Below are positions 6,352 to 22,700 of a stretch of 22,700 bases of DNA, one piece after another. The stretch spans positions 1-22,700 of the forward strand of contig JALVPN010000221.1 of the NCBI GenBank assembly GCA_027031765.1, written 5' to 3'. A program made the position numbers and the translations under genes. This stretch comes from Promethearchaeota archaeon. GTDB lineage: Archaea > Asgardarchaeota > Thorarchaeia > Thorarchaeales > Thorarchaeaceae. Below the pieces are notes generated by a model that was not told the origin of the DNA, made no database searches, and worked only from the letters and a program-made list of their open reading frames with translations. Each line of letters starts with the position of its first letter. The first letter of the stretch is position 1.

Positions 6352-6683
6352 CAACTGCTCACCGACAATGACATCGCATCCCAGAATATTCAACATTCCG
6401 GGCGCCCCCTCACGACCACGATAAGTACCCGTCTTTCCAACCAGACAGTGATATGGCCTGGCTGCGCATAACCGCCAATAAACACCTGTATAACCCGCTA
6501 CTATACCACTACCACCACCGACCGCCAGGTACTTACCAAGATTTCCGCGTGGTCTCCATGTCTTGTCGTTGGACCAGGTGCTCCGCAACCACGCATCATG
6601 GTCTCAAGATGTAATGCATTGTGGTCCCCTGACACATCATTGCAGTTGTCGCTGCAACATGAGAAGTGGTCTTCCGTGCCCCA

Positions 6684-7337
6684 TCACTCCGTCACGGGCT
6701 CTGATACTACAGGGCCCGAATACTTTGCCTGGAGCTCCTGCACGACCGCCCTTGCCTGGGCCCCCAACTCGTCCTCTCGTCCTACCAACGACTGCAATTC
6801 TGTCACTGCAATGGCATTGTGCCTGTGGGCCGCCAGGAACAGACTCTCAAGACAGTCGGTGAGCAGCTCCGTGTCCACTCCGCGGCCCTCCTCATATGCG
6901 ATAACTACTGGGTACGCAGCGTGTCTGTAAAAGTTGTTCTTGTATCCTTCCCCCAGAAAGGCAAGCCAGACATTCAGCACCAAGAGCATGATTCCGAAGG
7001 GAACATGCCCGCACATAAGCCCTTGGAACATGGGGTCAGCACTAGGACAGCAGAGAGAATACACAATCAAGAAGCCCAGGTTCCAGGGTAGGGCAACTAG
7101 GGTGAAATAGGAGCGGAGGTGGCTACCACACAGGAGCTGCCGCAAGCGACCAGCATGTCTGGTCGTGTATTCATCACCCCAGAAGTAGACATAGAGGATG
7201 GTCACAATGAAGGACTCTGGTACCATCACGCCTCCGAAAAAGATCATGATCCATGAGAAAAGGGCTATGTTTGAGAGAAAGATGTCGAAGACTGAGGAAA
7301 AGATGTCGAAGACTGAGGAAAAGATGTCGAGAGTCAT
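6684..7337 (-). CDS. Partner (putative immunity) membrane protein, family A
   Basis: ATGA overlap with the tip A stop. About 3 TM segments plus a helical C-terminal domain. Clear paralogue of 18747..19325 (shared FWGDEYTTRHAGRLR, AYEEGRGVDTELLTDCLES, QARAVVQELQAKYSGPVV). Confidence 0.75.
   Translation of the reverse strand: MTLDIFSSVFDIFSSVFDIFLSNIALFSWIMIFFGGVMVPESFIVTILYVYFWGDEYTTRHAGRLRQLLCGSHLRSYFTLVALPWNLGFLIVYSLCCPSADPMFQGLMCGHVPFGIMLLVLNVWLAFLGEGYKNNFYRHAAYPVVIAYEEGRGVDTELLTDCLESLFLAAHRHNAIAVTELQSLVGREDELGAQARAVVQELQAKYSGPVVSEPVTE
7278..7330. repeat. 21-bp tandem repeat, 2.5 copies (encodes DIFSSVF)
   Basis: aaagatgtcgaagactgagga x2 plus aaagatgtcga. Confidence 0.95.
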
Positions 7338-8257
7338 CGCTGTACCTCCGTGAACTCTTTGACCGAGGTTTCAAAATACTCTATCCATACGGATTGCATA
7401 GAGCCCACTATGAAGGAGTTGAACGCCGCACTTGCCATTCCCCGGAGAAGTCGGGGACAGTATATCTCTCTGAGCTTGCCAGACAGGTTCTCGGAAACAT
7501 GCCATAGCACTTGCAGTATGAAGGCATGCGTACCAGGTCCCATTGAGAACGTCAAGGCGGCCCACCATGCCCCCAATACCCCGACTACGAAATCGACCGT
7601 GACTCCACATGCTCCATAGGCCACTAGGAGTAGCGTCGACCGCTGACTCCAGGTCACATAGTGACCAGCCATGAGAGCCACTCTTGCAGCAGGTCCCATC
7701 ATGCACATTGTCATGCAGGCGTCTACTGCACCCAGACCAAGCAGCAGTGCGACACTCAACAGGAAGAGGACAGCTGAGGCGATACTCTCAACGGCAGTTG
7801 CCCCTGCCACATGCGCTGCCCAGGACTGTTCCTGTGGACTAGTCATCCGGTCGTCCACCGGCGTGCAAGTCTCACACCCTTCGACTCGAGAGTCACACAG
7901 CAGTTCCACTGAGACGTGCAGAGTAGCAGTGCCCCCTGCTGGAGTCGAGACCGTCAACGACAGGTGAATGCGCGGCCACCACCCTTCCCACCACGCCACA
8001 ACCTCCTCTGGCAACCTCTGGATGTCATCTGGGAGGAATCGGGCAGCTGGCAAGGGCTCGGCCTCTGCATGGCAGCCGTCAACATTCCCATGAGACTCCT
8101 CCGGCCCATCCGGGTCTGGCGCTGCCGGGTCGTGCCGCGTCAGCGCCGCTACCACCTTGATGTCGTGGGTGTGTATCTCCACCAGAGTGTACGAGGAGTA
8201 CCAATGTTTCATGATGACCACAGCATACTTGATGACTTGGGGGCCCCTGTCACTCAC
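7334..8257 (-). CDS. Orphan cassette, variable tip type A (junction module plus hydrophobic C-terminal domain)
   Basis: Begins directly in a degenerate junction module (QVIKYAVV...HDIKVVAALTRHDPAAPDPDGP). GTG overlaps the upstream stop. Paralogue of 19325..20389. Confidence 0.7.
   Translation of the reverse strand: MSDRGPQVIKYAVVIMKHWYSSYTLVEIHTHDIKVVAALTRHDPAAPDPDGPEESHGNVDGCHAEAEPLPAARFLPDDIQRLPEEVVAWWEGWWPRIHLSLTVSTPAGGTATLHVSVELLCDSRVEGCETCTPVDDRMTSPQEQSWAAHVAGATAVESIASAVLFLLSVALLLGLGAVDACMTMCMMGPAARVALMAGHYVTWSQRSTLLLVAYGACGVTVDFVVGVLGAWWAALTFSMGPGTHAFILQVLWHVSENLSGKLREIYCPRLLRGMASAAFNSFIVGSMQSVWIEYFETSVKEFTEVQR
8101..8240. repeat. Junction module copy 1 (degenerate)
   Basis: ccgggtcgtgccgcgtcagcgccgctaccaccttgatgtcgtg core shared with five other sites. 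Confidence 0.85.
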
Positions 8258-8790
8258 GGATGCCGGATATTATTAGTCGGCACTTGAGTGTTCCCAAGCC
8301 CTCCCGTAGGATCTGGGCTCGTACAACACACTCGTAAGAGGGCCATGAGAACTAACGGAAAGACCAACGAATACGTTAACTGCATGTCCTGCACCGTTTC
8401 CGGCAGTTCTTGGGGCCACAGTATTCCAATGACTAGCAAAGGCAGTCCGAAGAATATGGCGGTAGCACCGAGGTTGGCAATCAGACTTGCTCTCACGGTC
8501 CGGACAGTGGCCCCGTGAAGTCGGACGAGGAAAGGAAGAGGCCTCTCAGACTGGTCAGTCCTGGCCATAGCGGACTTTCTCGCATACCTCCTTGTTAGAT
8601 GACTTGCAATTCTAAGTACAATAAGTGGAAGGGAAGATATCATGTAAAGCCAGACCACAATCCATGGACTGATTGTCGTACGGACACCTCCTTTTCTCCT
8701 GCTATTTTGGACCTGAGAGGTAAATCCCTGCCATGACACCAAGTCCAAGCAATAGGAGCAGAGTTCGTGCACACTGCAAGAAAGTGTCAT
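8254..8790 (-). CDS. Partner (putative immunity) membrane protein, family C
   Basis: Three hydrophobic segments (WIVVWLYMISSLPLIVL, LGATAIFFGLPLLVIGILW, YSLVFPLVLMALL), directly after the 610-aa gene. The true start is uncertain and probably lies downstream of 8700 in transcription direction (GTG 8658 or ATG 8643). Confidence 0.65.
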   Translation of the reverse strand: MTLSCSVHELCSYCLDLVSWQGFTSQVQNSRRKGGVRTTISPWIVVWLYMISSLPLIVLRIASHLTRRYARKSAMARTDQSERPLPFLVRLHGATVRTVRASLIANLGATAIFFGLPLLVIGILWPQELPETVQDMQLTYSLVFPLVLMALLRVCCTSPDPTGGLGNTQVPTNNIRHP

Positions 8791-10534
8791 GGTACCCCCA
8801 CTCCTCTATTGTTTCGACCCTATACTTGCGTAGGGGTGTGAAAACTCGGCAGAAAAAAGTATGGGCAGCAAGCGTGTCCCCTCCAAAGACAATACCCCAT
8901 GTTAGTACAAATAACGAAACGACTGCATCACGCCATGCAATCTCTCTGAAAAGGTATCCCTGTGCAATGTTGACTATCAACGCAAATGCGAACCCAGTAT
9001 ATGCTAGCATGGACACCGTAAAAAGAAGTCTGGAATGCGGAATCAGTTGGAATGTGGCGAAAAACTGTGCCATCGTCAATGAAACCGTCACGCATATAGT
9101 GAGATCTCGGATTGCAGCGTGTCTGAGGACTCGCCCTACGGATGACTCGAAGTCCGCATCACTCATGGACTCTAGGAATGGGAAACTAAAGATACAGCTT
9201 TCTGTTGTGAGTGTTCCCAGTAGGTCCACATAGAAGACCATTGAGAATGTGAGCAATCCGATTACGAGGTTGAGAGTGAACTTCAAAGTTGGCCAAGGGC
9301 CTAACCATTCCAATTCGAGCGCATCTCTGGCCAGGTCTTCAAAACTAGCAACAAAACTTTCTGCCTGTGACCACCTACCTGCGCTCTGGGCAGTACCATC
9401 GGCAGTACCATCATACACCACCGGCTCATCCAGGTCCGGCGCTGTCGGGTCGTGCCGCGTCAGGTCCGCCACCACCCTGATGTCGTGGATTCGCATCCCC
9501 ACAAGGTCGGAACTGGAGTACCTGTAGCCCAGTATTGCCACGTACTTGATCACCCGGGAGGCATTGTTACAGTCGCCCAGTGCGAATGGGGCGGCCTGTC
9601 CATCGGTACTGGTAAAGACTGCGCCCTGTGGCGAGCCGTCGTGCTCGCCCCACGAGAACGTGACCGTCTTCTGGAAAAAGGACGTGTAGCTGTAGCCGGA
9701 CCACCTGCGGCAAGGCGACCCGCTGTCCTGTGGGTAGAAGTACGCATAGACGTAGCCCTTCCTGGCGTTGGACCACGAGTCACCAAACACCACCATCACT
9801 ACCCGTCGCATCTCCTCGTCACAGAGCGCGACGTACGTCTTGCCCATCCCGGCCCCGGAGTCCTGGAGCAGGTCGCAGACCACTGTGAACTCGCTGAGCT
9901 GGTAGAGCCTGAAGGGCCGGTCCAGGACGTGTACGTAGCACGGGCCGTGCCACCCCTCCCCGGTGGCTATCTCCGACCACGTCATGTAGCTCTGTCCTGA
10001 CGGTACTGTGAGCTCGCCGTCACCACGGGCACCGAAGGGGAACGACGGGTCGCTGTGGAACCCCTCCATGTCGTTGCACGTGTCGTGGAAGACCGTGGAC
10101 TCGGAGCCCACGTAGCTCACCCGGATGCCGTAGGCCCTCGCAAGGCCCTGAGTGACCCCATTGCGGTAGGCCTGTATGACGACGTACTGGATGGGCCTGT
10201 GACGGTCCACCTGGTCGTAGAGGTAGAGGACCTTCTCGTCAGCACCAGGCACGCCCGCCACCACTCCCTGTAGCGGGTCGTACCGCAGGGCCACCACGCC
10301 CGTGAACCGTCCCGGCACCGCCACCTGACTGCACGCGCTCGTACCGTCTTCCCGGTAGTAGTAGCGTGCGGTCACGTACACGGTTCTCCTGTTGAGGTGC
10401 CGCCCCAACAGCTGAGCTGTTTCGGGGGCACACCGACACACTCTGTCCTCTCTGAGCGTCCCCACAACACTACTGCGCGACACTGACACTGGAATGCTAC
10501 CTCTCCTCTTCTTTTCTCTCCTCTCCTCTCTCAC
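8702..10534 (-). CDS. Apparently full-length effector/surface protein: beta-rich N-terminal domain, junction module, hydrophobic tip type C
   Basis: 610-aa ORF. aa ~50-355 are rich in aromatic and beta-strand residues, DLTRHDP is at ~aa 357-363, and about 4 hydrophobic helices follow, ending TLLLLLGLGVMAGIYLSGPK. It is the only copy with a long intact N-terminus. Confidence 0.8.
   Translation of the reverse strand: MREERREKKRRGSIPVSVSRSSVVGTLREDRVCRCAPETAQLLGRHLNRRTVYVTARYYYREDGTSACSQVAVPGRFTGVVALRYDPLQGVVAGVPGADEKVLYLYDQVDRHRPIQYVVIQAYRNGVTQGLARAYGIRVSYVGSESTVFHDTCNDMEGFHSDPSFPFGARGDGELTVPSGQSYMTWSEIATGEGWHGPCYVHVLDRPFRLYQLSEFTVVCDLLQDSGAGMGKTYVALCDEEMRRVVMVVFGDSWSNARKGYVYAYFYPQDSGSPCRRWSGYSYTSFFQKTVTFSWGEHDGSPQGAVFTSTDGQAAPFALGDCNNASRVIKYVAILGYRYSSSDLVGMRIHDIRVVADLTRHDPTAPDLDEPVVYDGTADGTAQSAGRWSQAESFVASFEDLARDALELEWLGPWPTLKFTLNLVIGLLTFSMVFYVDLLGTLTTESCIFSFPFLESMSDADFESSVGRVLRHAAIRDLTICVTVSLTMAQFFATFQLIPHSRLLFTVSMLAYTGFAFALIVNIAQGYLFREIAWRDAVVSLFVLTWGIVFGGDTLAAHTFFCRVFTPLRKYRVETIEEWGYHDTFLQCARTLLLLLGLGVMAGIYLSGPK
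9421..9577. repeat. Junction module copy 2 (in the full-length gene)
   Basis: Encodes GDCNNASRVIKYVAILGYRYSSSDLVGMRIHDIRVVADLTRHDPTAPDLDEP. Confidence 0.92.
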
Positions 10535-11262
10535 TGTCTGCGTCTGTGTCTGTGTCCATGTCTGTGTTTCATGCAGGCGTCCTCTATCTTTCTCAGGCCC
10601 TCATGCGCGGTCCTGCACCCATGCCGGTGCATGGTACCACGCGACAGACGGGTGGATGAGGGTGCCCAGCCCCTACCCTGCACGGGGCCGGACCCGACTT
10701 TCTCTATCAAGTGCTACTCACATACGCGACAATATAAGGGGCGGGGTCACAGTGCCGTGCCGAACTCTGGCCCGGAGGGCCTGTCTGGCGCCATTCCGGG
10801 GATCATGGGAGAGGGAGAGGACGACGCGCCCACGAGGGTGTCCTGGAAAGGACAAAAATGGCCCTCTCTGCTTAACATCTGGCCACGCTGCTGGTGCGGC
10901 CACGACCACTCCGTCACGTGCTGTCCAGCGCCGGCTCCAGTGCAGGGTGTGCCACGGAGGAGAACCGGCCAGAAGACAGTCCACAACCCGTCCTTCAAGA
11001 GAGAGGGGAGCGACGGAAGAGAGATGAGTGAGGGATAGGACTGGCAACCAGATAGCATGTCTGCCGGAAAGGAGTTCAGCAGACGTTGTGGCCCGTCAAC
11101 TCAAGTCAATTCCGGCCCCGTATTTTGGGACACATCATTATCCGAAATATGCTCAGTCCTACTGTCAGTGCCGTGAAGACCAGTGTTGTCCGTCGTAGTC
11201 CGAGGAAATGGCAGTGGGCCTTTCCCTTGCAGGCCTGACAGCAGGAGGAAAATCTCAGTCCC

Positions 11263-11688
11263 TTACAACCGACCAAGAATGTTCAGTCCAATTATTCTTT
11301 CGAACTGGACAAGGTCATCGAGGTCGGACTTGAGTATGGTGAGCAGTATGGAGTTGTCAAAGTCCATGTAGCTGTGGACCAGGCGGTTCCTGAAGGCCGC
11401 CATCTTGGAAAGCCGCTCCGCAAAGTCCTGTGACAACAGACCATGCTTTGAAAGGACTGTGAACACTTCAGCATAGGAAGTGGGTTTTTCCCAGCCCATT
11501 CTACCTATGATTGCATTCCCGATGTCCAGACAGATCTGGATAGCTTCTATGAGATAGAACTTGGCGGCACCGAGATAGATACGGTTGTTCACCAGTTCGG
11601 CATGCCCTATTGATGCTATTTCTCTCAGGACAGCAATACTAGAGTCAAGTCGAGACAGTCTCTCCCTGATTGAACCAGAGGACATCAA
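11263..11688 (-). CDS. hepT: HEPN (DUF86/HepT-like) RNase toxin
   Basis: RNRLVHSY matches the R-X4-H-X-Y motif. EAIQICLDIGNAII and P-T-S-Y-A-E-V-F are typical of DUF86. Overlaps the MNT gene. Confidence 0.9.
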   Translation of the reverse strand: MMSSGSIRERLSRLDSSIAVLREIASIGHAELVNNRIYLGAAKFYLIEAIQICLDIGNAIIGRMGWEKPTSYAEVFTVLSKHGLLSQDFAERLSKMAAFRNRLVHSYMDFDNSILLTILKSDLDDLVQFERIIGLNILGRL

Positions 11689-12125
11689 GAGGCCTCACCG
11701 TCCACAAGGCGCCTGTGCAGATATGCGTAGTACGTGTCAAGGGCATACTTGAAGTCGAGGTACTCGATAAGCGTCCGGGTCTCAAAGGATGCCCGGATCT
11801 CATCGTCAAGACAATAGATGACGCGCCCGTCCTTGATGACCTGGTACCGGAACTCCACAGGGGCGTGGTCCAGGGACTGGAGGTCCACTTCGACATCAGG
11901 AACAATCCGGGACAGGTCGTAGGTCAGGTCTCTCAGGAGAGATGCGTACTCTGAGTCTGGTGTGCCATCTGGGAGCAGGACCGCAATATCGAGGTCACTG
12001 AGCGGAGTCGTAGCTCTCAAGGCGTAGGAACCATGGAGGTAGGCCAGTACAACGCCTTGGGTCGCCAGTATCTCGGTTATTGCCGGCAGCAATGCCTCCA
12101 GCTCTTCAGGACTCGGTCCAGTCAT
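11685..12125 (-). CDS. mntA: Minimal nucleotidyltransferase (MntA-like) antitoxin
   Basis: YLHGSYA...SDLDIAV catalytic motif, VDLQSL third Asp, 146 aa, directly upstream of the HEPN gene. Confidence 0.9.
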   Translation of the reverse strand: MTGPSPEELEALLPAITEILATQGVVLAYLHGSYALRATTPLSDLDIAVLLPDGTPDSEYASLLRDLTYDLSRIVPDVEVDLQSLDHAPVEFRYQVIKDGRVIYCLDDEIRASFETRTLIEYLDFKYALDTYYAYLHRRLVDGEAS

Positions 12126-12212
12126 CGGTACTTACCTGTTGATTGCGTCTCCTCGGAGTCCATTCTCAAGTATTCACACCGGCCTTACTGTAAAAAACGT
12201 ACTGGATGATGG

Positions 12213-12470
12213 CACCACAACTCCCTGTCTCGACAGGGGAGGAGACCATAGTCCCGGACGACTGCACACTACTACCTCCACCCTGTGGGTGGGAGTAGAC
12301 GTTGGGCCAGCCCTTCCCGTGCGGAGGACATCATCCGCCCCTCGCCCCTCGCCGTGGCCGCAACAGTGACCGCGCACAGGGCCCATGGCATGCGGCACAT
12401 ATCAACGCCCGTGCTCAGCGGGACTGCGGGGGCCACCCCTGGTCCTTCATGACTCAGAGTGGTCAGTCCG
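12213..12470 (-). pseudogene. Truncated cassette homology arm (no junction module or tip follows)
   Basis: Matches 22250-22490 and 14945-15040. Encodes SSAR/(frameshift)/KGWPNVYSHPQGGGSSVQSSGTM, homologous to SNARKGYVYAYFYPQDSG of the 610-aa gene. Homology ends at ~12213. Confidence 0.75.
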
Positions 12471-12666
12471 TGGTGGTCAAGCGCCGTCCTCGCACATGTC
12501 CATCTCGTCCAGTCCCGTGTCATCCTCCATCTCCTCCTCTATCTCCTCATCTGCCGGATATGGTCTGCCGGCGCCCCAGTACCTGTAGCGAGGGTCATAC
12601 ATAGGGTAACAGCACGTCATTACTACTACCCAGAGGACGAAGATGGGGTATCTTCCCATCTCATAC
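12283..12666. repeat. ~385-bp direct repeat, near-identical to 22318..22700
   Basis: Base-by-base comparison shows only scattered substitutions and small indels. Covers the 3' end of partner E plus the downstream arm. Confidence 0.93.
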
Positions 12667-12998
12667 ATGACACCTGACAGGAAAGCGGGGGGCAACAGGA
12701 GCCACCAGAACAAGGACGTGGGCAATACAGCGGAAGCATATGCCATGAGCATGTATGTGACCAGGTCTACTGGTCGTGTCACGTGTTCTGCGTACCATGC
12801 ACCACGTCTCGTGGGGTCAAGTCCCGCCCCTCTCATCTTCAGCACAAGCTGCCACTCACCGTCACGTCTGTAGCGACTGAACAAGATATAGATGGTCCCA
12901 CCAACCAGTACTCCAGTGCACCATGCAATCAAACTGAGGACACCTTCCTGCACCTGACAGCCCTCCGGCCGATAGTCCGGCCCGTAGTCACGTCCCAT
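12477..12998 (-). CDS. Partner (putative immunity) membrane protein, family E, with acidic tail
   Basis: About 4 hydrophobic segments and a C-terminal DEEIEEEMEDDTGLDEMD. ATG overlaps the stop of 12988..13203. Paralogue at 22511..22700. Confidence 0.72.
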   Translation of the reverse strand: MGRDYGPDYRPEGCQVQEGVLSLIAWCTGVLVGGTIYILFSRYRRDGEWQLVLKMRGAGLDPTRRGAWYAEHVTRPVDLVTYMLMAYASAVLPTSLFWWLLLPPAFLSGVMYEMGRYPIFVLWVVVMTCCYPMYDPRYRYWGAGRPYPADEEIEEEMEDDTGLDEMDMCEDGA

Positions 12999-13203
12999 CA
13001 GACCACTGATAAATCCACCCTACTAAGAAGCCAACTGCAAAGACGACTATAGTGAGCAAGACGACAAGATCCGCCAACATGAGTCCAAAATGTATCCGCC
13101 CCTCAAGGCCTCTCTTCTGCCACTGTTGCCCATGCTGATACCGCTCTCTGAAACACCTGGAGTACTCCGCAGCACCCCTACTCTTTTCACCCAAACGATA
13201 CAT
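12988..13203 (-). pseudogene. Probable remnant C-terminal end of a tip (type E)
   Basis: Ends in one long hydrophobic helix (FGLMLADLVVLLTIVVFAVGFLVGWIY), as tips B, C and D do, and overlaps the partner E start. No junction module upstream. Confidence 0.45.
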
Positions 13204-13239
13204 ACTCTACCTGAGCCGAGAGAAACAGGGAAAGGCAGA

Positions 13240-14860: not shown

Positions 14861-14891
14861 CCGACCCACCGGTGCCCGCATACACCGCTCC
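14830..14891. repeat. 31-bp tandem duplication (frameshifting)
   Basis: ctgacccaccagtcctcgcatacaccgctcc / ccgacccaccggtgcccgcatacaccgctcc. Confidence 0.88.
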
Positions 14892-15870: not shown

Positions 15871-16842
15871 TCAAGAGTTCTCAAGACCCATTGTCAAGAA
15901 CCTGGAGATGCAATAGACACAAGTGACCAGGACTGCTACCTTTACCAGTGCTATTGCGGCATACCAAAGGCCTATTCTAAGGGGACCAGAAGGCATTGCA
16001 TCGAGTGGCCGTAGCAGTTCCCATAGACCAGACATGAACCATGCCATTCGGAGAGCATAGGCTAGCCCCGGGAAAAGCAGGCCTAACAATGTGGCTAGTG
16101 CTGTAGCTGCACCGAAGGGATGGACTATTCCCTCATCGACAACATAGAACAGATACGCCAAGTAAGATACAAATATCACAGTCCAAGCAGCAAGCATCGC
16201 TAGTAGGGTTCCCAAATCCATGCCAATCGTCAGAGGAGACGCCACAGCTTCTATTGCCCTCAACCCTAGTGATAGAGCATAGCTCAATGCTACAGGGATG
16301 ACAAAAAGGGAAATGAAATCAGTGTATTGTGTTTCCATTTCTGTAGCTGCACTCCGTAGCTCTTGTTCCGAATGTTCCCGTTCAACCGGAGTAACTATAC
16401 TCAGTGAATGTACTTGAAAGTCACCCAAGATATCAGTCGACACAAGGAATGTCAGAGTCCCCTCCCCATCAAATGTCCCAGTGAACTGCAAGAATAGACG
16501 GGGCCAGCAGTTGACCAGCTCCCAGGAGACATCAATTGACTGGAGGAATGGACTCAGGACTGCACCCACACTCTCTACGAGGTCGTCCTGATGCTCAACC
16601 GCCCCCATTCCTGTCCCATCAGATACCACCGGCTCCTCCGGGTCTGGCGCATCCGGGTCGTGCCGTGTCAGGTCTGCCACCACCCTGGTGTCGTGTATGC
16701 CCATCCCCATAAGGTCGACACCGGAGTACCTGTAGCCAAAAATCGCCACGTATTTGACCACGCGCGAGGCATTGTCGCACTTGCCTATCAGACCGGGCGT
16801 TCCAGACCCATCAGTGCCCGCATTCACCGCTCCCCGACCACC
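15871..16842 (-). CDS. Orphan cassette, variable tip type B (5'-frameshifted)
   Basis: Homologous part of track ORF 15871..17088: GGRGAVNAGTDGSGTPGLIGKCDNASRVV...DLTRHDP...NCWPRL...DILGDFQV plus hydrophobic helices. Paralogue of 21238..22302. Confidence 0.72.
   Translation of the reverse strand, partial: GGRGAVNAGTDGSGTPGLIGKCDNASRVVKYVAIFGYRYSGVDLMGMGIHDTRVVADLTRHDPDAPDPEEPVVSDGTGMGAVEHQDDLVESVGAVLSPFLQSIDVSWELVNCWPRLFLQFTGTFDGEGTLTFLVSTDILGDFQVHSLSIVTPVEREHSEQELRSAATEMETQYTDFISLFVIPVALSYALSLGLRAIEAVASPLTIGMDLGTLLAMLAAWTVIFVSYLAYLFYVVDEGIVHPFGAATALATLLGLLFPGLAYALRMAWFMSGLWELLRPLDAMPSGPLRIGLWYAAIALVKVAVLVTCVYCISRFLTMGLENS
16629..16785. repeat. Junction module copy 4
   Basis: Encodes KCDNASRVVKYVAIFGYRYSGVDLMGMGIHDTRVVADLTRHDPDAPDPEEP. 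Confidence 0.92.
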
Positions 16843-16965
16843 CTGAGAGGGCCCACCACAACTCCCCGGCCTTCTTGGACGGGGTGCGGACATGTCCGGG
16901 ACCCTAGTAGCCTGGAGGACCTGTCCTGTGGACAGAGGTATGCGTTGGACCAGCCCTTGGTGAGA
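16843..16965 (-). pseudogene. Frameshifted homology arm of cassette B
   Basis: Alternative frames encode KGWSNAYLCPQDRSSR and GELWW, matching the arm consensus. Confidence 0.6.
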
Positions 16966-17105
16966 CCGACCCCGCACACCACCCCGGAGGAGGGGCATCA
17001 CAGTTTCCTCCTGCCTATCAACTAGGCCTGCGCGTGTCCTATCCGTCATATTGGCGTCCTCATATACCCACTGGACCACGAGTGGCATTGCGATGCCAAC
17101 GATGA

Positions 17106-17576
17106 CTATTCTGATCCCAGTCCGGACTCCTCGTCTGCTCCCTCCTCGTCCTCCTCATCCTCCTCATCCTCCTCGTCCTCCTCGTCCTCCTCATCCTCCT
17201 CGTCCTCCTCCTCATCCATTGGCTCCTCCGTCACCATTATGGTCAACAGAATGGCATTCAGAAAGCCCCCCCAAGAAAAAGTCAGAAAGTCGTCAATGGA
17301 AGGATGAGGGGGTCCAAACAAGAAGTCTACGAGCTCGGATGGCGCAAGGAGATATCCTGCAAGGAGTATACACAGAAAAGGGGCTTCGAGTGCAATGATA
17401 TTGTACATGAACTCTGTAATCCGCTTCTCTGATGCTTTCAGATACAAGATGGCAATCACTGGACAGGCCTCTTCAGCTCCTCTGAGATGTCGGATGCCAT
17501 AGACACTCCCCACCCCTAGAACAATCAGTATCAAGACGCCTGCAACTAGGCCTAGCAAGAACCAATCGACATACAT
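17106..17576 (-). CDS. Orphan partner-like membrane protein with poly-acidic tail
   Basis: ATG at 17576 with GGAGG upstream (MYVDWFLLGLVAGVLILIVLG). About 3 TM segments and a C-terminal (EED)n tract. Confidence 0.75.
   Translation of the reverse strand: MYVDWFLLGLVAGVLILIVLGVGSVYGIRHLRGAEEACPVIAILYLKASEKRITEFMYNIIALEAPFLCILLAGYLLAPSELVDFLFGPPHPSIDDFLTFSWGGFLNAILLTIMVTEEPMDEEEDEEDEEDEEDEEDEEDEEDEEGADEESGLGSE
17142..17217. repeat. 9-bp tandem array encoding (EED)n
   Basis: (tcctc[ag]tcc)n, about 8 units. Confidence 0.92.
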
Positions 17577-17807
17577 AGTCTGTTCCTCCGCAGTGACATG
17601 TAGACAAAGACTGATTTGAATGCCAGCACTGTCCTCAGTCCCCTCCGGAGTAGACAAGAGATGCCAGTAGGACAGTATACGCGAGCAAGACTCATTGATG
17701 CTCCTGCTGTCCCGTCATTCATCACCGGCTGGTGACAATGAAGACCAAGGCATCGTCTCTGGAGCTCTGGAGTGATACTTCAGACATGCAGTGTTAACAA
17801 TCCGTTG

Positions 17808-18287
17808 TTAGTCCAGTCCTTCATTGCGGAACCAGAATTTGTCAACGACAAGAAGTACCAGGAAGATTCCCCCAAGAATGATGGTTAGTGTCCAGAGGGG
17901 GAGAAGGCCTTGGAGTACTCTGTTTGAGAGAGACTGGGGTCGATGAAAAGGAATGGGCCACAGCATTACGATACCGTTAAAGGCAATTATGAGCAGCTCC
18001 AGTACTCCCCGCCACCAGCGTGGCCTGGACTCCAAGAGAGCAACGTCCTCTGTTACCAGTCCTTCAAGGCCGAACAGGACTTCAATAAGGGATGTCCCGA
18101 GATACTTGTCGCAGAACCAGAGAGATAGAAAAAACGTGACAAGAGCAGTAACGAGCCAGATGAGAAACTTATGCCAGGGAGATAGAAACAACGTCGATAG
18201 AAACAGCGTCACAAGAGAGACGACGACCCAAATGACAAACAACTGGTATAGATGCGGTCCTCGGACTGTTCTAGTCATCACTGTCAC
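17808..18287 (-). CDS. Orphan partner-like 4-TM membrane protein
   Basis: Four hydrophobic segments, GAGGTG upstream, similar size and topology to partners C, D and E. No intact cognate tip. Confidence 0.75.
   Translation of the reverse strand: MTVMTRTVRGPHLYQLFVIWVVVSLVTLFLSTLFLSPWHKFLIWLVTALVTFFLSLWFCDKYLGTSLIEVLFGLEGLVTEDVALLESRPRWWRGVLELLIIAFNGIVMLWPIPFHRPQSLSNRVLQGLLPLWTLTIILGGIFLVLLVVDKFWFRNEGLD
18181..18210. repeat. 15-bp tandem duplication (TLFLS x2)
   Basis: gatagaaacaacgtc / gatagaaacagcgtc. Confidence 0.85.
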
Positions 18288-18299
18288 CTCTTTCAGTCC

Positions 18300-18632: not shown

Positions 18633-18746
18633 GAATGAACAGGTGCACCAACAAGGGGGCGGACAATACCACTGGCCCCGTCCTAGGCGACCGGGGCCAC
18701 ACCAGCAGTTGTCGCTGCAACGTGAGAAACGGTCTTCTGTGCCCCA

Positions 18747-19325
18747 TCACTCTGTCACGGGCCCTGGCACCACCGGGCCCGAATACTTTGCTTGGAGTTC
18801 CTGCACGACCGCCCTTGCCTGAACCCCCAACTCGTCCTCCCGGTCTATCAACGACTGTAATACCTCCTCTGCGATGACACTGTGCCTGTGGGCGGCCAGG
18901 AACACACTCTCAAGACAGTCCGTGAGGAGCTCCGTGTCCACTCCGCGGCCCTCCTCATACGCGGCAACTATCGGCTGCACAACATGTCTGGGAAAGCAGT
19001 CCTTGTACAGCTCTCCTATATAGACAGCCCCAATATTCAGCACCACCAGAGCGACAGCTCCGAGGAGGACATCCCACCACAGAGGAGTCCCCTGAAACAT
19101 GGGGTCATCACTGAGACTGTCGAGAAAATGCCCGATGAAGAAGCCCAGGTTCGCGGGCAGGGCAACAAGGGTGAAATAGGAGCGGAGGTGACTACCACAC
19201 AGGACTCGCCGCAGGCGACCAGCATGTCTGGTCGTGTACTCATCACCCCAGAAGACAGTGGTGATTGAACAGACCCACGCTAGTGCCATTACAGCTGCTA
19301 CCACAGCCAAGCGAAAAGAGGTCAT
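18747..19325 (-). CDS. Partner membrane protein, family A (allele A')
   Basis: ATG at 19325 in a TAATG overlap with the tip A' stop. Paralogue of 6684..7337. Confidence 0.78.
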   Translation of the reverse strand: MTSFRLAVVAAVMALAWVCSITTVFWGDEYTTRHAGRLRRVLCGSHLRSYFTLVALPANLGFFIGHFLDSLSDDPMFQGTPLWWDVLLGAVALVVLNIGAVYIGELYKDCFPRHVVQPIVAAYEEGRGVDTELLTDCLESVFLAAHRHSVIAEEVLQSLIDREDELGVQARAVVQELQAKYSGPVVPGPVTE

Positions 19326-20389
19326 TACTGTACCTCCATGAACTCTCTGACTGAGATCTCGTAAAACTTTGTCCATACGAACCACATAGATGCGACTATG
19401 AAGAAGTTGAACGCCGCAGCGACTATTCCCCAGAGAAGTCGGAAACGGTACGTTTCTCTGAGCTTACCAAACAAGTCCTCGGAAACATGCCACAAGAGTG
19501 GTACTATGAGGGCATACCCGACAAGCCCCGTTGGGTATGACAAGGCCATGCCCAACCACAGTCCCAGCAGTCCGACTACGAAATCGGCTGTGACCGCGCC
19601 TGCTCCATAGGCCGCTAGGAGTAGCGTAATCCACCGACTCCAAATCGCATAGTAACCAAGCATAAGGGCCACTTTTGCAGCAGGTTCTAGGCACGCCGCC
19701 ATCATGCAGGTGTCTACTACACCCAGACCAATTAGCAATGCGACACTCGACCACGCGATGGCAGTTGAAACAGTGTTCTCAACGGCAGTTGCCTCTGCCA
19801 CATGCACTGCCCAGGACTGCTCCTGTGCGTCAGTCATCCGGTCGTCCACCGGCGTGTCAATCTCACACCCTTCGACTCGAAAGTCACACAGCAGGTCGAC
19901 CGAGACGTGCAGAGTAGCCGTGCCACCTGCTGGAGTCGAGACCGTCAACGACAGGTGAATGCGGGGCCACCACCCTTCCCACCATGCCACAACCTGCTCC
20001 GGCAACCCCTGGATGTCATCCAGGAGGGACTGGACAGCTGGCGAGGGCTCGACCTCTGCATAGCACCCGTCAACAGTCCCATCGGACTCCTCTGGCTCCT
20101 CCGGGTCTGGCGCATCCGGGTCGTGCCGCGTCAGATCCGCCACCACCTTGATGTCGTGTATCCGCATCCCCACAAGGTCGAAACCAGAGTGCCTGTAACC
20201 CGAGACCGCCACGTACTTGGCCACACGCGGGGCATTGTCGCACTCGCCTATCGGACCAGGCGTCGCAGGCCCAGTGCTCACATTCACCGCTCCATCACCA
20301 CCCACCGGACAGTCCCCACCACAACGCCCCAGTCTTCCTGGACAGGGTGCACGAGTACCCTGGGTCCCAGTGGCCTGGAGGACTGTCAT
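19325..20389 (-). CDS. Orphan cassette, variable tip type A (allele A')
   Basis: IGECDNAPRVAKYV...DLTRHDPDAPDPEEP...WWEGWWPRIHLSLTV. In-frame homology starts ~20300 and upstream homology is in another frame. Confidence 0.72.
   Translation of the reverse strand: MTVLQATGTQGTRAPCPGRLGRCGGDCPVGGDGAVNVSTGPATPGPIGECDNAPRVAKYVAVSGYRHSGFDLVGMRIHDIKVVADLTRHDPDAPDPEEPEESDGTVDGCYAEVEPSPAVQSLLDDIQGLPEQVVAWWEGWWPRIHLSLTVSTPAGGTATLHVSVDLLCDFRVEGCEIDTPVDDRMTDAQEQSWAVHVAEATAVENTVSTAIAWSSVALLIGLGVVDTCMMAACLEPAAKVALMLGYYAIWSRWITLLLAAYGAGAVTADFVVGLLGLWLGMALSYPTGLVGYALIVPLLWHVSEDLFGKLRETYRFRLLWGIVAAAFNFFIVASMWFVWTKFYEISVREFMEVQ
20092..20248. repeat. Junction module copy 5
   Basis: Encodes ECDNAPRVAKYVAVSGYRHSGFDLVGMRIHDIKVVADLTRHDPDAPDPEEP. 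Confidence 0.92.
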
Positions 20390-20536: not shown

Positions 20537-21241
20537 CTATGGGGAGGCCATGGACTGGTCCCCGTCCTGTAGATATGTAGCATACCATTCTCTGTAGGCC
20601 CTCCTGAATGCCTCCCCGCACTCATCGTCCCGGGCCAGCAGCTGTCTGAATGCTCTGGCAAAGATGTTTCGCGTCCCCCCCTGACGCATCTTCTCGTACT
20701 CTGTGAGCAGACGGTGCACCAGTTCCTTGAATGCAGTCCTGTCAGGTGTTGACTTACGAAAGGCCGTCTCTACTGCCCCTACTACTGCATCTACTGGGAC
20801 CTGCTCCCACGCCTGTTCCAGGGCCCGCTCCCTGTCTGTCATCTCTCTTCTCCCGAACCGCCTTGAGAGCTCTCTGTATCTGCCGTAGACAGAGAAAATG
20901 AGAAAGAACAGTGGTAGAAGAATAAAAATCCAAATCACGGACAGAAGAAACAGGGATAGGCCATCCATCGGGCCTGCTGGCACTGACAATAGTGCTGACA
21001 GAAGTGGCACTGACAATAGTGCTGACAGAAGGAATGCTACCATAACATCAAACATGACATAGGTCGTCATTGCCCGTTTGAAAGTCCCACACAGGAAACG
21101 TCCCACCCTTCGCAGTACCATGGGGCCACATTCATGCTCGGAACAACAGTCGGATACCATGATAAACAAGCCGAACAACAGGAGTATTGCGGGCGCCCAG
21201 ATAATGAGGACTATCGGGAGGGGCGGTTGTTCGGTCATCAT
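20537..21241 (-). CDS. Partner membrane protein, family B (allele B')
   Basis: ATGA overlap with the tip B' stop. Paralogue of 15199..15858 (CSEHECGP, STPDRTAFKELVHRLLT, ARAFRQLLARDDECGEAF). Confidence 0.8.
   Translation of the reverse strand: MMTEQPPLPIVLIIWAPAILLLFGLFIMVSDCCSEHECGPMVLRRVGRFLCGTFKRAMTTYVMFDVMVAFLLSALLSVPLLSALLSVPAGPMDGLSLFLLSVIWIFILLPLFFLIFSVYGRYRELSRRFGRREMTDRERALEQAWEQVPVDAVVGAVETAFRKSTPDRTAFKELVHRLLTEYEKMRQGGTRNIFARAFRQLLARDDECGEAFRRAYREWYATYLQDGDQSMASP
20978..21031. repeat. Perfect 27-bp tandem duplication (LLSALLSVP x2)
   Basis: tggcactgacaatagtgctgacagaag x2. Confidence 0.95.
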
Positions 21242-22302
21242 GTTTCCACCTCAGAAGTCCAGTTCCTGAGACCCATCTCCAAGAACTTGACAATGTAATA
21301 GATACAGGTGACCAGGACCGCTACCTTTACCAGTACGACTGTGGCAGACCAGAGGCCTATCTTGCGGGAGCCAGAGGGCAGCCCTAGGTCGAAAGGTCGT
21401 CGTGTTCTCCATATACCAGACATGCACCAGGCCCTGCCAAGGACCAAGCGCATGGATCCGTCCCCAAGAAACGGTATCAAGAATGTGGTCAATGCTCCGG
21501 CGGCAGCAAGAGGACTGGTCACCCCCTCATCTACAGTATGGACTAGATACACCAAGTATGACACGAATGCCACAGTCCAAGCAGCAAGCATCACTAGCAG
21601 GACTCCCAGACTTGTGTCAATATTCAAAGGAGATGCCACAGCTTCTATTGCCTTCCATCCCAGTCCCACAGTAAGGGCAAGTGCCGTAGGGACAGCGTAT
21701 TCTGAAATGAGCTCGTCGTATTGTGTTTTCATTTCTGCCACTACATTCTGTAGCTCCTGCTCTGAGAGTCCCTGCTCAACCGAAGTAGCTATACTCAGTG
21801 AATGTATTTGAAAGTCACCCAAGATATCAGTTGAAACGAGTAGTGTGAGAGTCCCCTCCCCATCAAATGTCCCAGTGAACTGCAAGAATAGACGGGGCCA
21901 GAAGTTGACCAGCTCCCAGAAGACATCAATTGGCTGGAGGAATGGACTCAGGACTGCACCCACACTCTCTACGAGGTCGTCCTGATGCTCAACCGCCCCC
22001 ATTCCTGTCCCATCAGATACCACCGGCTCATCCGGGTCTGGCGCATCCGGGTCGTGCCGCGTCAGGTCCGCCACCACACTGGTGTCGTGTATGCGCATCC
22101 CCACCAGCTCGGGACTGGAGTACCTGTAGCCCAGGACTGCCACGTACTCGACCACCGGCAGGGACTTGTTGCACTCCGCTATCAGACATGCACTCTCCTG
22201 TCCGTCAATGCTCGGATACACCGTCCCGTGGCCACCCCGAAACGGATCCCACCACAACTCCCTTGTTTCGACAGAGGAAGTCATAGTCCCCGATGACAGC
22301 AC
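21238..22302 (-). CDS. Orphan cassette, variable tip type B (allele B')
   Basis: The frame is homologous to the 610-aa gene from KGWPNVYSYPQ (22350) through G-T-V-Y-P-S-I-D-G-Q and the junction module. In-frame stop at 22366-22368. Confidence 0.72.
   Translation of the reverse strand: MLSSGTMTSSVETRELWWDPFRGGHGTVYPSIDGQESACLIAECNKSLPVVEYVAVLGYRYSSPELVGMRIHDTSVVADLTRHDPDAPDPDEPVVSDGTGMGAVEHQDDLVESVGAVLSPFLQPIDVFWELVNFWPRLFLQFTGTFDGEGTLTLLVSTDILGDFQIHSLSIATSVEQGLSEQELQNVVAEMKTQYDELISEYAVPTALALTVGLGWKAIEAVASPLNIDTSLGVLLVMLAAWTVAFVSYLVYLVHTVDEGVTSPLAAAGALTTFLIPFLGDGSMRLVLGRAWCMSGIWRTRRPFDLGLPSGSRKIGLWSATVVLVKVAVLVTCIYYIVKFLEMGLRNWTSEVET
22023..22178. repeat. Junction module copy 6
   Basis: Encodes ECNKSLPVVEYVAVLGYRYSSPELVGMRIHDTSVVADLTRHDPDAPDPDEP. 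Confidence 0.92.
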
Positions 22303-22490
22303 ACCACTGCCTCCATTCTGTGGGTAGGAGTAGACGTTGGGCCAGCCCTTCCCGTGCGGAGGACATCATCCGTCCCTCGCCCCTCACCGTGGCCGCAACA
22401 GTGACCGCGCACAGGGCCCAGAGCATGCGTGACACATCAATGCCCGTGCTCAGCGGGACTGCGGGGGCCACCCCGGCCCTTCATGACTCA
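22303..22490 (-). pseudogene. Frameshifted homology arm of cassette B'
   Basis: tcc tcc gca cgg g aag ggc tgg: one extra G separates SSAR from KGWPNVYSYPQ (compare SNARKGYVYAYFYPQ). Confidence 0.7.
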
Positions 22491-22510
22491 TAGTGGTCAG
22501 TCCGTGGTGG

Positions 22511-22700
22511 TCAAGCGCCGTCCTCGCACATGTCCATCTCGTCCAGTCCCGTGTCATCCTCCATCTCCTCCTCTATCTCCTCATCTGCCGGATATGGTCT
22601 GCCGGCGCCCCAGTACTTGTAGCGGGGGTCATACATAGGGTAGCAGCACGTCATTACTACTACCGAGAGGACGAAGATGGGGTATCTTCCCATCTCATAC
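22511..22700 (-). CDS. Partner membrane protein, family E (allele E'), 5'-partial
   Basis: Near-identical to the C-terminus of 12477..12998. The frame runs off the right edge. Confidence 0.75.
   Translation of the reverse strand, partial: YEMGRYPIFVLSVVVMTCCYPMYDPRYKYWGAGRPYPADEEIEEEMEDDTGLDEMDMCEDGA

Follow-up and report, generated by a model that had tools for sequence, protein, structure and literature searches.

The stretch of DNA analyzed here (the window) is 22,700 nucleotides long and is one whole contig of a 229-contig MAG, breaking off within a repeat. A repeat search of the window located six copies of a conserved junction, all in minus-strand open reading frames, which carry the motif RIHDI..VADLTRHDP and are 70–83% identical over 127–229 nt, a level far exceeding chance. 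Every junction is followed by a divergent tip of 247–269 aa with several hydrophobic helices, and each tip is adjoined downstream by a small ORF with 2–4 hydrophobic helices, its partner. The original prediction had described these repeated units on one strand in an archaeon, together with additional orphan membrane genes; all six copies are there, as are three membrane ORFs without a tip (17106–17657, 17808–18287 and 12477–12998), and the host belongs to the Asgard group. Core genes (RadA and XPD) lie beyond the last gene of the array, whose features, all on the minus strand, are listed from the contig end toward these core genes.

Junction copies (minus strand, repeat search): 8076–8202, 9396–9631, 14631–14866, 16604–16839, 20067–20302, 21998–22233
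22511–22700, minus: 3' end of the partner gene after the full-length main gene, running off the contig (repeat match); 96% identical to 12429–12666, encoding the C-terminal 62 aa of the 12477–12998 partner type, whose 5' part is at the end of contig C137
21238–22350, minus: cassette B', with 5' arm from residue 101 of the last ConA-like domain (tblastn, 22350–22048), junction (21998–22233) and type-B tip, 67% identical to that of cassette B
20537–21241, minus: partner B', 234 aa, three hydrophobic helices and a charged C-terminal helical domain (similarity to partner B, 61% identical)
19325–20335, minus: cassette A, with arm from residue 133, junction and type-A tip, 66% identical to that of A' (repeats, tblastn)
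18747–19385, minus: partner A, 212 aa, hydrophobic helices (similarity to partner A', 71% identity across 168 aa)
17808–18287, minus: orphan membrane ORF, 159 aa, about four hydrophobic helices, no upstream tip; no relative among the tips, partners and loci compared
17106–17657, minus: orphan partner gene without its cognate tip (partner similarity); acidic D/E tail built from 9-nt repeats (repeat family D3)
15871–16851, ORF continuing to 17088, minus: cassette B, with arm from residue 141, junction and type-B tip (repeats, tblastn)
15199–15858, minus: partner B, 219 aa
13871–15041, minus: cassette C, with frameshifted arm, junction and tip C (tblastn); arm divided between frame -1 (15041–14862) and frame -2 (14866–14681), tip ORF open
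13240–13890, minus: partner C, 216 aa, about four hydrophobic helices
12988–13203, minus: 71-aa 3' remnant of a main-gene-type tip (similarity to the C137 gene; DNA 93% identical to the 3' end of that gene, protein end near-identical)
12477–12998, minus: second copy of the main-gene-type partner, 173 aa, its tip only a remnant
12213–12313, minus: lone piece of a cassette 5' arm (repeat family D12, common to 14949–15039, 22258–22348 and contig C42)
11263–12125, minus: MNT/HepT toxin–antitoxin pair (nucleotidyltransferase and HEPN RNase) inside the array (Pfam Polbeta 2.7e-17, HepT-like 2.8e-27)
8702–10534, minus: long cassette (the 610-aa ORF), with half the penultimate and the entire last ConA-like domain, junction and tip, without a signal peptide (homology to full-length relatives, AF2 model)
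8254–8790, minus: long-cassette partner, 178 aa as read; its true start is probably internal, given an 89-nt overlap with the tip end
7334–8257, minus: cassette A', with the shortest arm (from residue 166), degraded junction and type-A tip
6684–7337, minus: partner A', 217 aa, final gene of the array (similarity to partner A)

Each cassette begins with an arm of 40–105 codons from the last ConA-like lectin domain (tblastn); the arms are graded in length, one is frameshifted, and their retention is precise at the domain end. GC content is 48–58% in tips and partners alike, as against 61–64% in the arms, which fits the transfer of tip and partner as one unit. The orphan tips and partners are open frames with dN/dS of 0.38–0.63, and these silent sequences are under purifying selection. 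The orphan partner at 17106–17657 matches the partners of cassettes at two other loci, L003:3089–4390 (E 4e-53) and L002:12756–14171 (E 6e-5), and no tip of the cognate type occurs in the window. MNT/HepT-like pairs were also observed within the arrays at L002 and L004.

Because the window is an entire contig of a fragmented MAG and ends in a repeat, the order of its cassettes depends on short-read assembly, and an assembler could conceivably have strung together strain variants of a single gene end where no real array exists. Read depth estimated from unitigs is doubled at 12128–13241 and 14356–14912, as such an artefact might produce, and the Logan unitigs in the sole run containing the array are about 1 kb long, too short to verify cassette order. 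Against this, depth is even (about 9–15) over the unique parts of the window; the cassettes are 15–75% divergent in sequence, with partners and spacers unique to each; and the same layout occurs in independent assemblies, which include a genome of 10 contigs as well as contigs of 13.8, 31.7 and 35 kb. We therefore regard an artefact as very improbable. Misassembly had been raised as a concern in the original prediction, and the recurrence of the layout argues against it, with the order inside the window still taken from a short-read MAG.

A main gene followed by cassette–partner units was found at L001 (genome G332), L004 (G313, the 10-contig genome) and L007 (G334), and cassette–partner units with no main gene within the stretches examined at L003 and L002. 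Altogether, the arrangement of a main gene with ordered cassettes occurs in at least five genomes. The family is restricted to a single Asgard family, where it is present in 35 of 85 genomes, as against none of 314 elsewhere in the phylum.

The full-length gene and its lectin-like carrier

The 610-aa ORF had been read as an intact main gene, a reading that we revise: homology to full-length relatives of about 1000–1300 aa starts only at about residue 41–59 (10360–10414), midway through the penultimate repeat domain, and since the signal peptide and N-terminal domains are missing, this ORF ranks merely as the longest among the six truncated cassettes. The full-length gene of the same assembly resides on contig C137, which probably abuts the window end; the expressed gene is thus probably directly upstream of the window. 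It encodes at least 1283 aa ending in junction and tip, and its 3' end and partner are duplicated within the window. The window holds the reservoir of silent cassettes for a polymorphic locus that encodes a surface protein in an Asgard archaeon of a Thorarchaeota family.

The encoded protein, of about 1300 aa, comprises a signal peptide (read from homologues, as the N-terminus of the C137 copy lies off the contig), an N-terminal alpha/beta domain, ConA-like lectin domains (two or three) and the tip, which is preceded by a conserved, acidic linker rich in proline (HDPxAPxPxxP...DGT). By inspection, the N-termini of full-length homologues resemble Sec signals, in which a charged n-region leads into a hydrophobic stretch and then an AW-T/S-AD site; no secretion apparatus, delivery machine or release step was identified for the main protein. 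The N-terminal alpha/beta domain has no Pfam or PDB sequence match. It has an invariant His...Cys pair (invariant H-G-G and H...C-x-S), and its language-model neighbors are CHAT, Peptidase_C25, DUF6345 and DUF6642, at only 0.83–0.87. It may be a caspase-like peptidase and as such a candidate for the releasing (auto)peptidase role that caspase-like, HINT and ZU5 domains have in polymorphic toxins, which we take only as a lead.

The repeat domain, 40–60% identical between genomes in the ConA-like region, is predicted to form a two-sheet curved beta-sandwich of about 200–230 aa, i.e., the concanavalin-A-like lectin/glucanase fold. The AF2 model of the long cassette has a pLDDT of 87.8 (above 90 across most of residues 11–220), and Foldseek gave E 6e-8 for the domain. 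In VIA-align, the domain matched phage J-1 Dit CBM2 (5ly8; Z 17.2, rmsd 3.5 Å, 206 aligned), as well as calnexin, calreticulin and GH16 (Z 12–13), at identities of only 7–13% to solved members and with no matching Pfam model, so that the likeness is one of fold alone. The junction corresponds to the final two strands of this lectin domain. Of the original statement that the N-terminal part, the junction and the tips belong to no named family, the portion concerning the tips stands, and the other two are now accounted for by the ConA-like fold.

Diversity of the tips and co-variation with their partners

In predicted structures all tips share a single fold, in which a four-helix membrane bundle carries an extracellular helix and a four-strand sheet. 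Structure searches turned up no solved relative: the best Foldseek match was CorA (E 0.017, TM 0.19), VIA-align returned nothing more specific than generic helix bundles (Z no higher than 12.2), and comparison with the Atlas gave TM of at most 0.31. No Pfam, NCBIfam or PADLOC model matches any tip or partner, and across all of these searches no tip resembled a known toxin fold or family, which leaves room for a new membrane toxin. The sequences fit an N-out, C-out topology with four transmembrane helices; the linker is acidic, as are the helix and sheet, and K/R residues abound in a loop at tip residues 191–220.

Defining a tip type at 33% identity or more, we sorted 76 tips into 34 types, such that the family has at least 34 sequence types. 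Five of these occur on full-length genes as well as in orphan cassettes, and the type-B tip is also carried by a full-length 1113-aa gene in a Thorarchaeota MAG (L004). Among 18 units, 12 partner pairs are related at E<1e-3, and these coincide, pair for pair, with the 12 tip pairs of highest similarity; this co-variation is perfect in at least five genomes. Tip–partner linkage and tip variability had been proposed as features to seek in homologous loci, and both were found. Because the two genes are adjacent, linkage alone could explain their co-variation.

Structure prediction of the tip B–partner B complex, run on custom-built alignments, suggests that the two proteins may bind. The ipSAE was 0.56 (median of three runs; best control, 0.00), above a pass mark that 58 of 80 solved complexes reached, along with 2 of 110 mismatched pairs, and passing values at or below 0.60 were given by only seven of the 80 solved complexes and by both passing mismatches. 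The runs shared at least 68% of contacts, with a partner pLDDT of at least 75. Partner B has only six relatives among 5.8 billion proteins, and those with a source name are from Thorarchaeota. Partner types A, B and a third (that of the L001 cassette 10203–11096) have a soluble C-terminal motif in common, pointing to a shared function in the cytoplasm; in some partners, a conserved helical domain on the cytoplasmic side contains the motif R-x-D-E-x-G.

Possible roles of the array

The organization is that of a polymorphic toxin locus, as originally proposed and by the definition of Zhang et al. (2012): a conserved N-terminal and central region is followed, past a conserved junction, by a polymorphic C-terminal domain; tips co-vary with partners; and standalone 5'-truncated cassettes lie downstream, sharing tip types with main genes, with which we infer that they recombine. 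Toxicity, immunity and recognition we likewise infer from this layout. The reading that we favor, though with rather less than even confidence, is that the swappable tips are membrane-acting effectors that kill and that the partners are their cognate membrane immunity proteins. Recombination within the arm would exchange tip and partner jointly on the expressed gene; the lectin domains would grip surface glycans and the tip would be delivered to neighboring cells on contact, acting as, e.g., a depolarizing or pore-forming effector; tip and partner would bind specifically inside the membrane; and cells would hoard partner genes without tips. Two partners (17106–17657 and 12477–12998) have outlasted their tips, as expected for hoarded immunity genes (Zhang et al. 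2012, PMC3482391).

Several considerations weigh against an effector. No tip matches a known toxin fold, and all tips have one fold; moreover, four strongly hydrophobic helices and a signal peptide predict stable insertion into the producer's own membrane, with no delivery or release step identified. If the tips were instead determinants of a non-lethal self-identity, match or mismatch between tip and partner in the membrane would signal kin, and cassettes would let lineages switch identity. That tips are alleles of one fold, in at least 34 types that co-vary with their partners, suits a recognition determinant better than a toxin assortment; both proteins are integral to the membrane, the lectin-like ectodomain suits cell–cell contact, and in IdsD/IdsE the specificity of binding lies in variable, predicted membrane-spanning subdomains (PMC4471559). 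However, IdsD requires T6SS transfer between cells, and no transfer route is visible here; no homology to Ids was found; partner genes without tips are more typical of immunity hoarding; and windowed dN/dS is mostly below 1, so that strong diversifying selection is not evident. On balance, we consider a self-identity function rather unlikely, and less probable than the effector reading.

A third explanation assigns the array no role in conflict: the tip would be a polytopic anchor or signaling module of a lectin-like adhesin, the partner a structural or signaling subunit, and the cassettes leftovers from duplication and recombination within a variable island, where viruses or other exploiting agents may drive variation. 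A four-helix bundle with both termini outside is typical of a resident membrane protein, and the lack of a toxin fold among tips, the C-terminal motif common to three partner types and the position of the array in an island carrying toxin–antitoxin modules all accord with this account. It does not explain why silent tips and partners stay open under purifying selection, why a main gene with ordered cassettes recurs in at least five genomes, why arms are kept precisely at the domain end, or why partners outlast lost tips; and a membrane-buried region would be a poor target for virus-driven variation. We judge it doubtful, and a shade less probable than a self-identity function.

Comparison with known systems

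The closest organizational counterparts of the array are the bacterial polymorphic toxin systems with orphan cassettes, CdiA/CdiI, Rhs and MafB (Zhang et al. 2012, PMC3482391). These share with the array a large multidomain protein that is exported and has a variable C-terminal tip beyond a conserved junction, a co-varying partner gene directly downstream of the tip, 5'-truncated tip–partner cassettes with homology arms on the same strand, orphan partner genes and lower-GC tips. In contrast to them, the array showed no FHA, RHS or YD repeats and nothing of a T5, T6 or T7 system in Pfam searches, and it lacks VENN and PxxxxDPxGL motifs; its carrier is built of ConA-like lectin domains, its host is an Asgard archaeon and the toxicity of its tips is putative. 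Nor did the expectation of a CdiA-, Rhs- or MafB-like tip assortment hold, since the tips are many alleles of one homologous four-transmembrane-helix domain, whereas theirs are mixed unrelated enzymes. Identity with CdiA/CdiB, which are marked by a TPS domain, FHA repeats, the VENN pre-toxin motif and the CdiB transporter, was rejected because neither cassettes nor full-length homologues have any Pfam match and the junction carries its own motif rather than VENN; identity with Rhs/YD-repeat proteins, with their YD/RHS repeats and PxxxxDPxGL autocleavage motif, was rejected because there is no Pfam or NCBIfam match and the carrier domains fold as ConA-like sandwiches.

A precedent for a hydrophobic polymorphic tip beside a small membrane partner is Tse5-CT, a transmembrane Rhs tip that acts on membranes by forming pores and is encoded beside Tsi5, a small integral membrane immunity protein (PMC9637101, PMC10684867). 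Tse5-CT sits in an Rhs cage and is injected by the T6SS (PMC9637101, PMC10684867); the array tip is much larger and has an extracellular sheet, and no similarity between the two was detected. IdsD/IdsE of Proteus mirabilis are likewise two membrane proteins encoded by adjacent genes; their binding is allele-restricted, with its specificity set by variable subdomains that are predicted to be membrane-spanning, and export of IdsD is through a T6SS (PMC4471559). They lack homology to the array proteins, and Ids has no cassette array.

Among archaea, the VARTIG locus of Thermococcales encodes a large secreted or membrane protein of unknown function, in which recombination makes the C-terminal domain hypervariable; the proteins encoded after it are small and mostly of the membrane. 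The authors who described this module liken it to polymorphic toxin systems and found no counterpart outside Thermococcales (PMC8416519). The general plan, i.e., an archaeal large protein with a variable C-terminus and small membrane proteins after it, is common to both. We rejected membership in VARTIG, whose large protein is defined by Ig domains (arCOG07710), the C-terminal one being hypervariable and extracellular (PMC8416519); the Asgard protein instead has ConA-like constant domains and varies in a four-helix membrane bundle. The two also belong to different phyla, and explicit 5'-truncated cassettes are a feature of the Asgard array. An Asgard archaeon has a layout like that of bacterial contact-dependent toxin and kin-recognition loci, yet every component of the array is new.

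Organization of the array and its main gene

The contig is complete at 22.7 kb and comes from a metagenome-assembled genome (MAG) of 2.95 Mb in 229 contigs with 59% GC. Positions 1–6600 hold core genes on the minus strand plus two ORFs without a family; from about 6642 to the contig end, all genes lie on the minus strand and GC falls from ~64% to 48–58%. A repeat search recovered the junction six times (8076–8202, 9396–9631, 14631–14866, 16604–16839, 20067–20302 and 21998–22233; copies 70–83% identical), and at each copy the open reading frame runs on into a hydrophobic tip of 247–269 aa, 3' of which lies a small ORF with two to four hydrophobic helices. The original prediction was right to describe an array of such cassettes on one strand. 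Units A/A' and B/B' are each present twice in diverged form, with 74–89% DNA identity between the duplicates.

Gene order from the main gene to the core genes (window coordinates)
Contig C137 of the same assembly: main gene with tip 0
Ends at 22511, minus strand: partner 0
21238–22302 and 20537–21241, minus strand: cassette B' and its partner
19325–20389 and 18747–19385, minus strand: cassette A and its partner
17808–18287 and 17106–17657, minus strand: two orphan membrane genes
15871–17088 and 15199–15858, minus strand: cassette B and its partner
Minus strand: cassette C (arm frameshifted) and its partner
Minus strand: 71-aa remnant of tip 0, second copy of partner 0 (12477–12998) and arm fragment (12213–12313)
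11263–12125, minus strand: MNT/HepT toxin-antitoxin pair
8702–10534, minus strand: long 610-aa cassette, followed by its partner
7334–8257 and 6684–7337, minus strand: cassette A' and its partner
4442–5509, minus strand: RadA (core gene)
1325–3370, minus strand: XPD-type helicase (core gene)

The two ORFs between RadA/XPD and the array, at 5626–6588 (320 aa) and 3377–4114 (245 aa), both on the minus strand, have no Pfam match; the 320-aa ORF also has no PADLOC match, and a weak paralogue of it occurs on contig C140. Within the array, the MNT (Polbeta nucleotidyltransferase) and HepT (HEPN RNase) pair directly follows the isolated arm fragment, and MNT/HEPN and PIN/VapB pairs are likewise scattered through two related arrays (L002 and L004). 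The 728 nt that separate the HepT gene from the long cassette (10535–11262) start with GTCTGTGTC-like repeats and hold no convincing ORF.

That the 610-aa ORF is an intact long gene, as had been proposed, was not borne out. Its public relatives reach up to 1000–2000 aa, and by tblastn it corresponds to residues 530–868 of one homologue (P0005, 1061 aa) and 483–964 of another (P0007, 1057 aa). Homology to full-length relatives starts at 10360–10414 of the window (i.e., at about residue 41–59), in the middle of a repeat domain; there is no signal peptide, and the N-terminal domains are all missing. The full-length gene of this genome is instead on C137 (4105 bp), as a single open frame of 1283 codons whose 5' end runs off the contig. 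Because its last 458 nt, which include the end of the tip and the start of the partner, are 93% identical to 12739–13193, and the last 238 nt of the window are 96% identical to 12429–12666, the partner gene of the main tip is split between the ends of C137 and the window, with ~72 nt missing. On this basis, C137 would sit immediately upstream of the array, and the assembly probably broke at the internal duplicate 12213–13203, where unitig depth doubles. In Logan unitigs, depth is ~20 at 12128–13241 and 14356–14912 versus ~10 elsewhere. Near-identical second copies would fit this, those on C137 of the main gene's partner and tip end as well as those of the junction; at position 12757 the unitig agrees with C137 (A) and not with the window (G). 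Two or three further cassette-partner units lie on yet another contig (C42).

The array is very unlikely to be a product of misassembly. A search of sequencing runs returned one DNA run matching the window, a hydrothermal vent metagenome that is probably the source sample, and listed no matching RNA run; the unitigs of the DNA run, at ~1 kb, are too short to test the order of the cassettes or the join to C137. The same layout, all of it on one strand, is found on a JGI metagenome contig (L001) that is identical to part of another genome (G332): a 1061-aa gene with a signal peptide, a 135-aa three-helix partner, two small membrane ORFs and three cassettes (345, 337 and 297 aa), all with junction and tip, and then an arm fragment that ends the array. 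A Thorarchaeota MAG in 10 contigs (G313, GCA_021498125.1) has a 1113-aa gene and its partner followed by one cassette with its partner, and further cassette-partner units, with HEPN/MNT and PIN modules interspersed, occur in genome G334, an ENA contig and a second NCBI MAG. The adjacency of tip and partner that was to be expected in homologous loci held in G313 and for two of the three L001 cassettes, each followed by a small membrane partner, and failed for the 337-aa cassette, where the next called gene lacks a hydrophobic helix and the sole candidate partner is a weakly hydrophobic overlapping ORF.

Among 400 genomes of the phylum, the last lectin-like domain of the carrier was found in 35 of 85 from the window's own family, commonly with multiple copies, and in none of the 314 from 32 other families. 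An exhaustive phmmer search of 1.84 billion representatives gave only 207 matches at E≤0.001, many of them 280–400 aa long and starting just before the junction. A haloarchaeal origin, initially suspected from the high GC, was rejected: the names of homologues and a distribution limited to one family assign the genome to the Thorarchaeota family.

A lectin-like carrier with a membrane-embedded tip

The AF2 model of long-cassette residues 141–610 (mean pLDDT 87.8) predicts that model residues 1–216 form a beta-sandwich of the concanavalin-A (ConA)-like lectin/glucanase fold. Among solved structures it is closest to the CBM2 carbohydrate-binding module of phage J-1 Dit (5ly8; Z 17.2, rmsd 3.5 Å, 206 aligned), with calnexin, calreticulin and GH16 enzymes next (Z 12–13); the Foldseek E value is 6e-8. 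Full-length proteins have two or three ConA-like domains, and because every one of them ends in the same pair of strands, the junction corresponds to the two strands that close the last lectin-like domain. The earlier view that the junction belongs to no named family stands in so far as Pfam, NCBIfam and PADLOC have no match on the cassettes, and falls at the level of fold, which is recognizably ConA-like. Cassette arms comprise 40–105 codons of the last lectin-like domain, and the arm of cassette C is split over two frames.

Full-length homologues open with a Sec-type signal-like segment, followed by a domain of ~170 aa with invariant H-G-G and H...C-x-S motifs, reminiscent of the His/Cys dyad in clan CD (caspase-like) peptidases, which serve many polymorphic toxins as releasing peptidases (PMC3482391). 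The language-model neighbours of this domain (CHAT, Peptidase_C25, DUF6345 and DUF6642) are weak, at 0.83–0.87 (i.e., <0.9). Its profile gave only chance-level matches to PDB sequences, Pfam found no consistent match across 15 members, and the Atlas has no model of these proteins. A caspase-like peptidase is a lead for this domain. Some full-length proteins have an extra beta-sandwich between the lectin domains, as at residues 165–241 of the homologue P0030 and at ~1780–2260 of C137; the former matches the Pfam family Glce_b_sandwich (D-glucuronyl C5-epimerase beta-sandwich; E 3.5e-17, scored in P0030 only), and the latter is suggested by likeness to the P0030 repeat and a gap in the alignment to the 610-aa ORF.

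Between the ConA-like domain and the tip lies a conserved linker, HDPxAPxPxxP...DGT, which is acidic and proline-rich and shows hardly any variation at D15 and G16. When the tip was modelled by itself with 58 homologues (pLDDT 86.7), the prediction was a helix, then a four-strand antiparallel sheet with near-invariant motifs (W..WP and D.L), and finally four long hydrophobic helices. The family as a whole has a strongly acidic linker, helix and sheet and a K/R-rich loop joining helices 3 and 4, a charge pattern that fits an N-out, C-out topology with four transmembrane (TM) helices, continuous with an extracellular stalk. Comparison of the tip fold with the PDB (Foldseek, VIA wide and VIA re-rank) and the Atlas found generic helix bundles and no specific relative: CorA and claudin (TM 0.15–0.2), and the four-helix bundles of STAT and syntaxin (Z 9–12), were all taken as generic. 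Pfam, NCBIfam and PADLOC were run against the cassettes, their tips and partners and the full-length homologues, and matched only the Glce insert of P0030 and the MNT/HepT pair; in agreement with the original prediction, the tips belong to no family named in these resources. A protein search based on the tip profile was dominated by frequent hydrophobic words and returned only four proteins; both of those with a named source are from Thorarchaeota.

Partners are 128–262 aa long with two to four hydrophobic helices, and end in some cases in an acidic tail and in others in a ~110-aa helical domain. An R-x-D-E-x-G motif in this domain is common to types A, B and one more; beyond it, partners of different types have no detectable similarity among the units compared. 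The (D/E)n tail of the orphan partner at 17106–17657 is encoded by 9-nt tandem repeats (17127–17237), and short acidic tails also end other partner types. Short in-frame tandem duplications in the hydrophobic N-terminal parts of partner A' (7278–7337, FSSVFDI unit) and partner B' (20950–21031, LLSALLSVP unit) lengthen the TM regions.

Tips and partners as units of exchange

In a comparison of 18 tip-partner units, partners match at E<1e-3 in 12 pairs, and the tips of precisely these pairs, some of them from different genomes, are the 12 most similar. This co-variation marks tip plus partner as the unit of inheritance and exchange and does not speak to binding as such, since neighbouring genes that are inherited together would co-vary in this way too. 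Grouping at ≥33% identity sorts the 76 tips into 34 types, five of which occur both at the ends of full-length genes and as orphans (database proteins being called orphan by their length); the type B tip is an orphan in the window, L001 and L003 and sits on the main gene in L004. The ORF at 17106–17657 is of the type that partners cassettes in L003 (E 4e-53) and L002 (E 6e-5), and its tip is absent from the window. GC is lower in tips and partners than in arms, as would be expected if they moved between lineages as units.

Between duplicates, tips have dN/dS values of 0.63 and 0.53 and partners of 0.53 and 0.38, and the tips of all five short cassettes are open. Duplicates are near-identical beside the junction and divergent in the TM helices. 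Diversifying selection was rejected as the source of this gradient: dS falls together with dN near the junction (0–0.1, rising to 0.5–1 in the TM part) and windowed dN/dS is mostly <1, and the gradient is therefore a recombination mosaic. We consider it unlikely that the system is a resident anchor or signalling module whose cassettes are relics; the conservation of the arrays, the retention of arms and the purifying selection seen on silent units are less well explained on that reading. The second copy of partner 0 (12477–12998) is kept beside the 71-aa tip remnant. In one cassette of C42 (2564–3766) the tip is decaying, broken by a stop or frameshift at ~3115–3119, and the partner (1977–2582) is intact.

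The predicted complex of tip B with partner B reached an ipSAE of 0.56 (median of three runs; best control 0.00). Of 80 solved complexes, 58 reach the mark, and of 110 mismatched pairs, 2 do, but at ipSAE ≤0.60 it is reached by only seven of the 80 solved complexes and by both of the mismatches that passed. At least 68% of contacts agree between runs and partner pLDDT is ≥75, with self-made alignments. The model hints that tip B may bind partner B.

Candidate functions and comparison with known systems

Our tentative first choice, by analogy, is that the tips would be membrane-acting toxins and the partners membrane immunity proteins; it is ranked first because of the precedent of Tse5-CT/Tsi5, in which a hydrophobic polymorphic tip is paired with a membrane immunity protein (PMC9637101), and because orphan partner genes are compatible with the hoarding of immunity. 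A non-lethal identity system like IdsD/IdsE, in which allele-restricted binding maps to membrane-spanning variable regions (PMC4471559), is somewhat unlikely overall and accounts for one fold with many alleles at least as well as toxin and immunity do. Less probable still is an Asgard-specific allorecognition or contact system, in which four-helix membrane alleles on a lectin-like stalk would pass from cell to cell by membrane contact, fusion or vesicles and be checked in the recipient membrane by the cognate partner. Were this true, membrane exchange between cells of the closest prokaryotic relatives of eukaryotes would be gated by self/non-self discrimination, through a locus made wholly of undescribed protein families and diversified via silent cassettes. 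The locus gives concrete, testable access to the way in which these uncultured relatives of eukaryotes treat their neighbours, be it killing, kin discrimination or controlled membrane contact, and its tip-partner sets are a natural library of co-evolved intramembrane pairs for the study of specificity within membranes.

A full-text literature search, with Makarova et al. 2019 (mBio, archaeal polymorphic toxins) outside its coverage, found no paper tying such a system to Asgard archaea. The nearest archaeal analogue is VARTIG of Thermococcales, whose function is likewise not assigned; it is built of Ig domains and its variable part is extracellular (PMC8416519). In PMC3482391, polymorphic toxin systems are defined by C-terminal domains diversified by recombination with standalone cassettes and by immunity genes downstream, and in their classical form are described as rare in archaea, where most immunity families are absent. 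The locus has the same organization as this definition, so that the proposed likeness to polymorphic toxins holds for layout; it does not extend to delivery, since there are no FHA, RHS, MafB or T5/T6/T7 features, or to the tips, which are all alleles of one polytopic membrane domain, a difference relevant to function. One Asgard family has thus independently built the whole scheme, with its main gene, junction, tip, partner and silent cassettes, and has used novel components to do so: a surface protein that is lectin-like, a family of four-TM tips in at least 34 types and several unrelated families of membrane partners. Bacteria already have loci of this kind, with a main gene and silent tip-partner cassettes; what is new here is the set of parts, the lineage that hosts them and the allelic tip embedded in the membrane.
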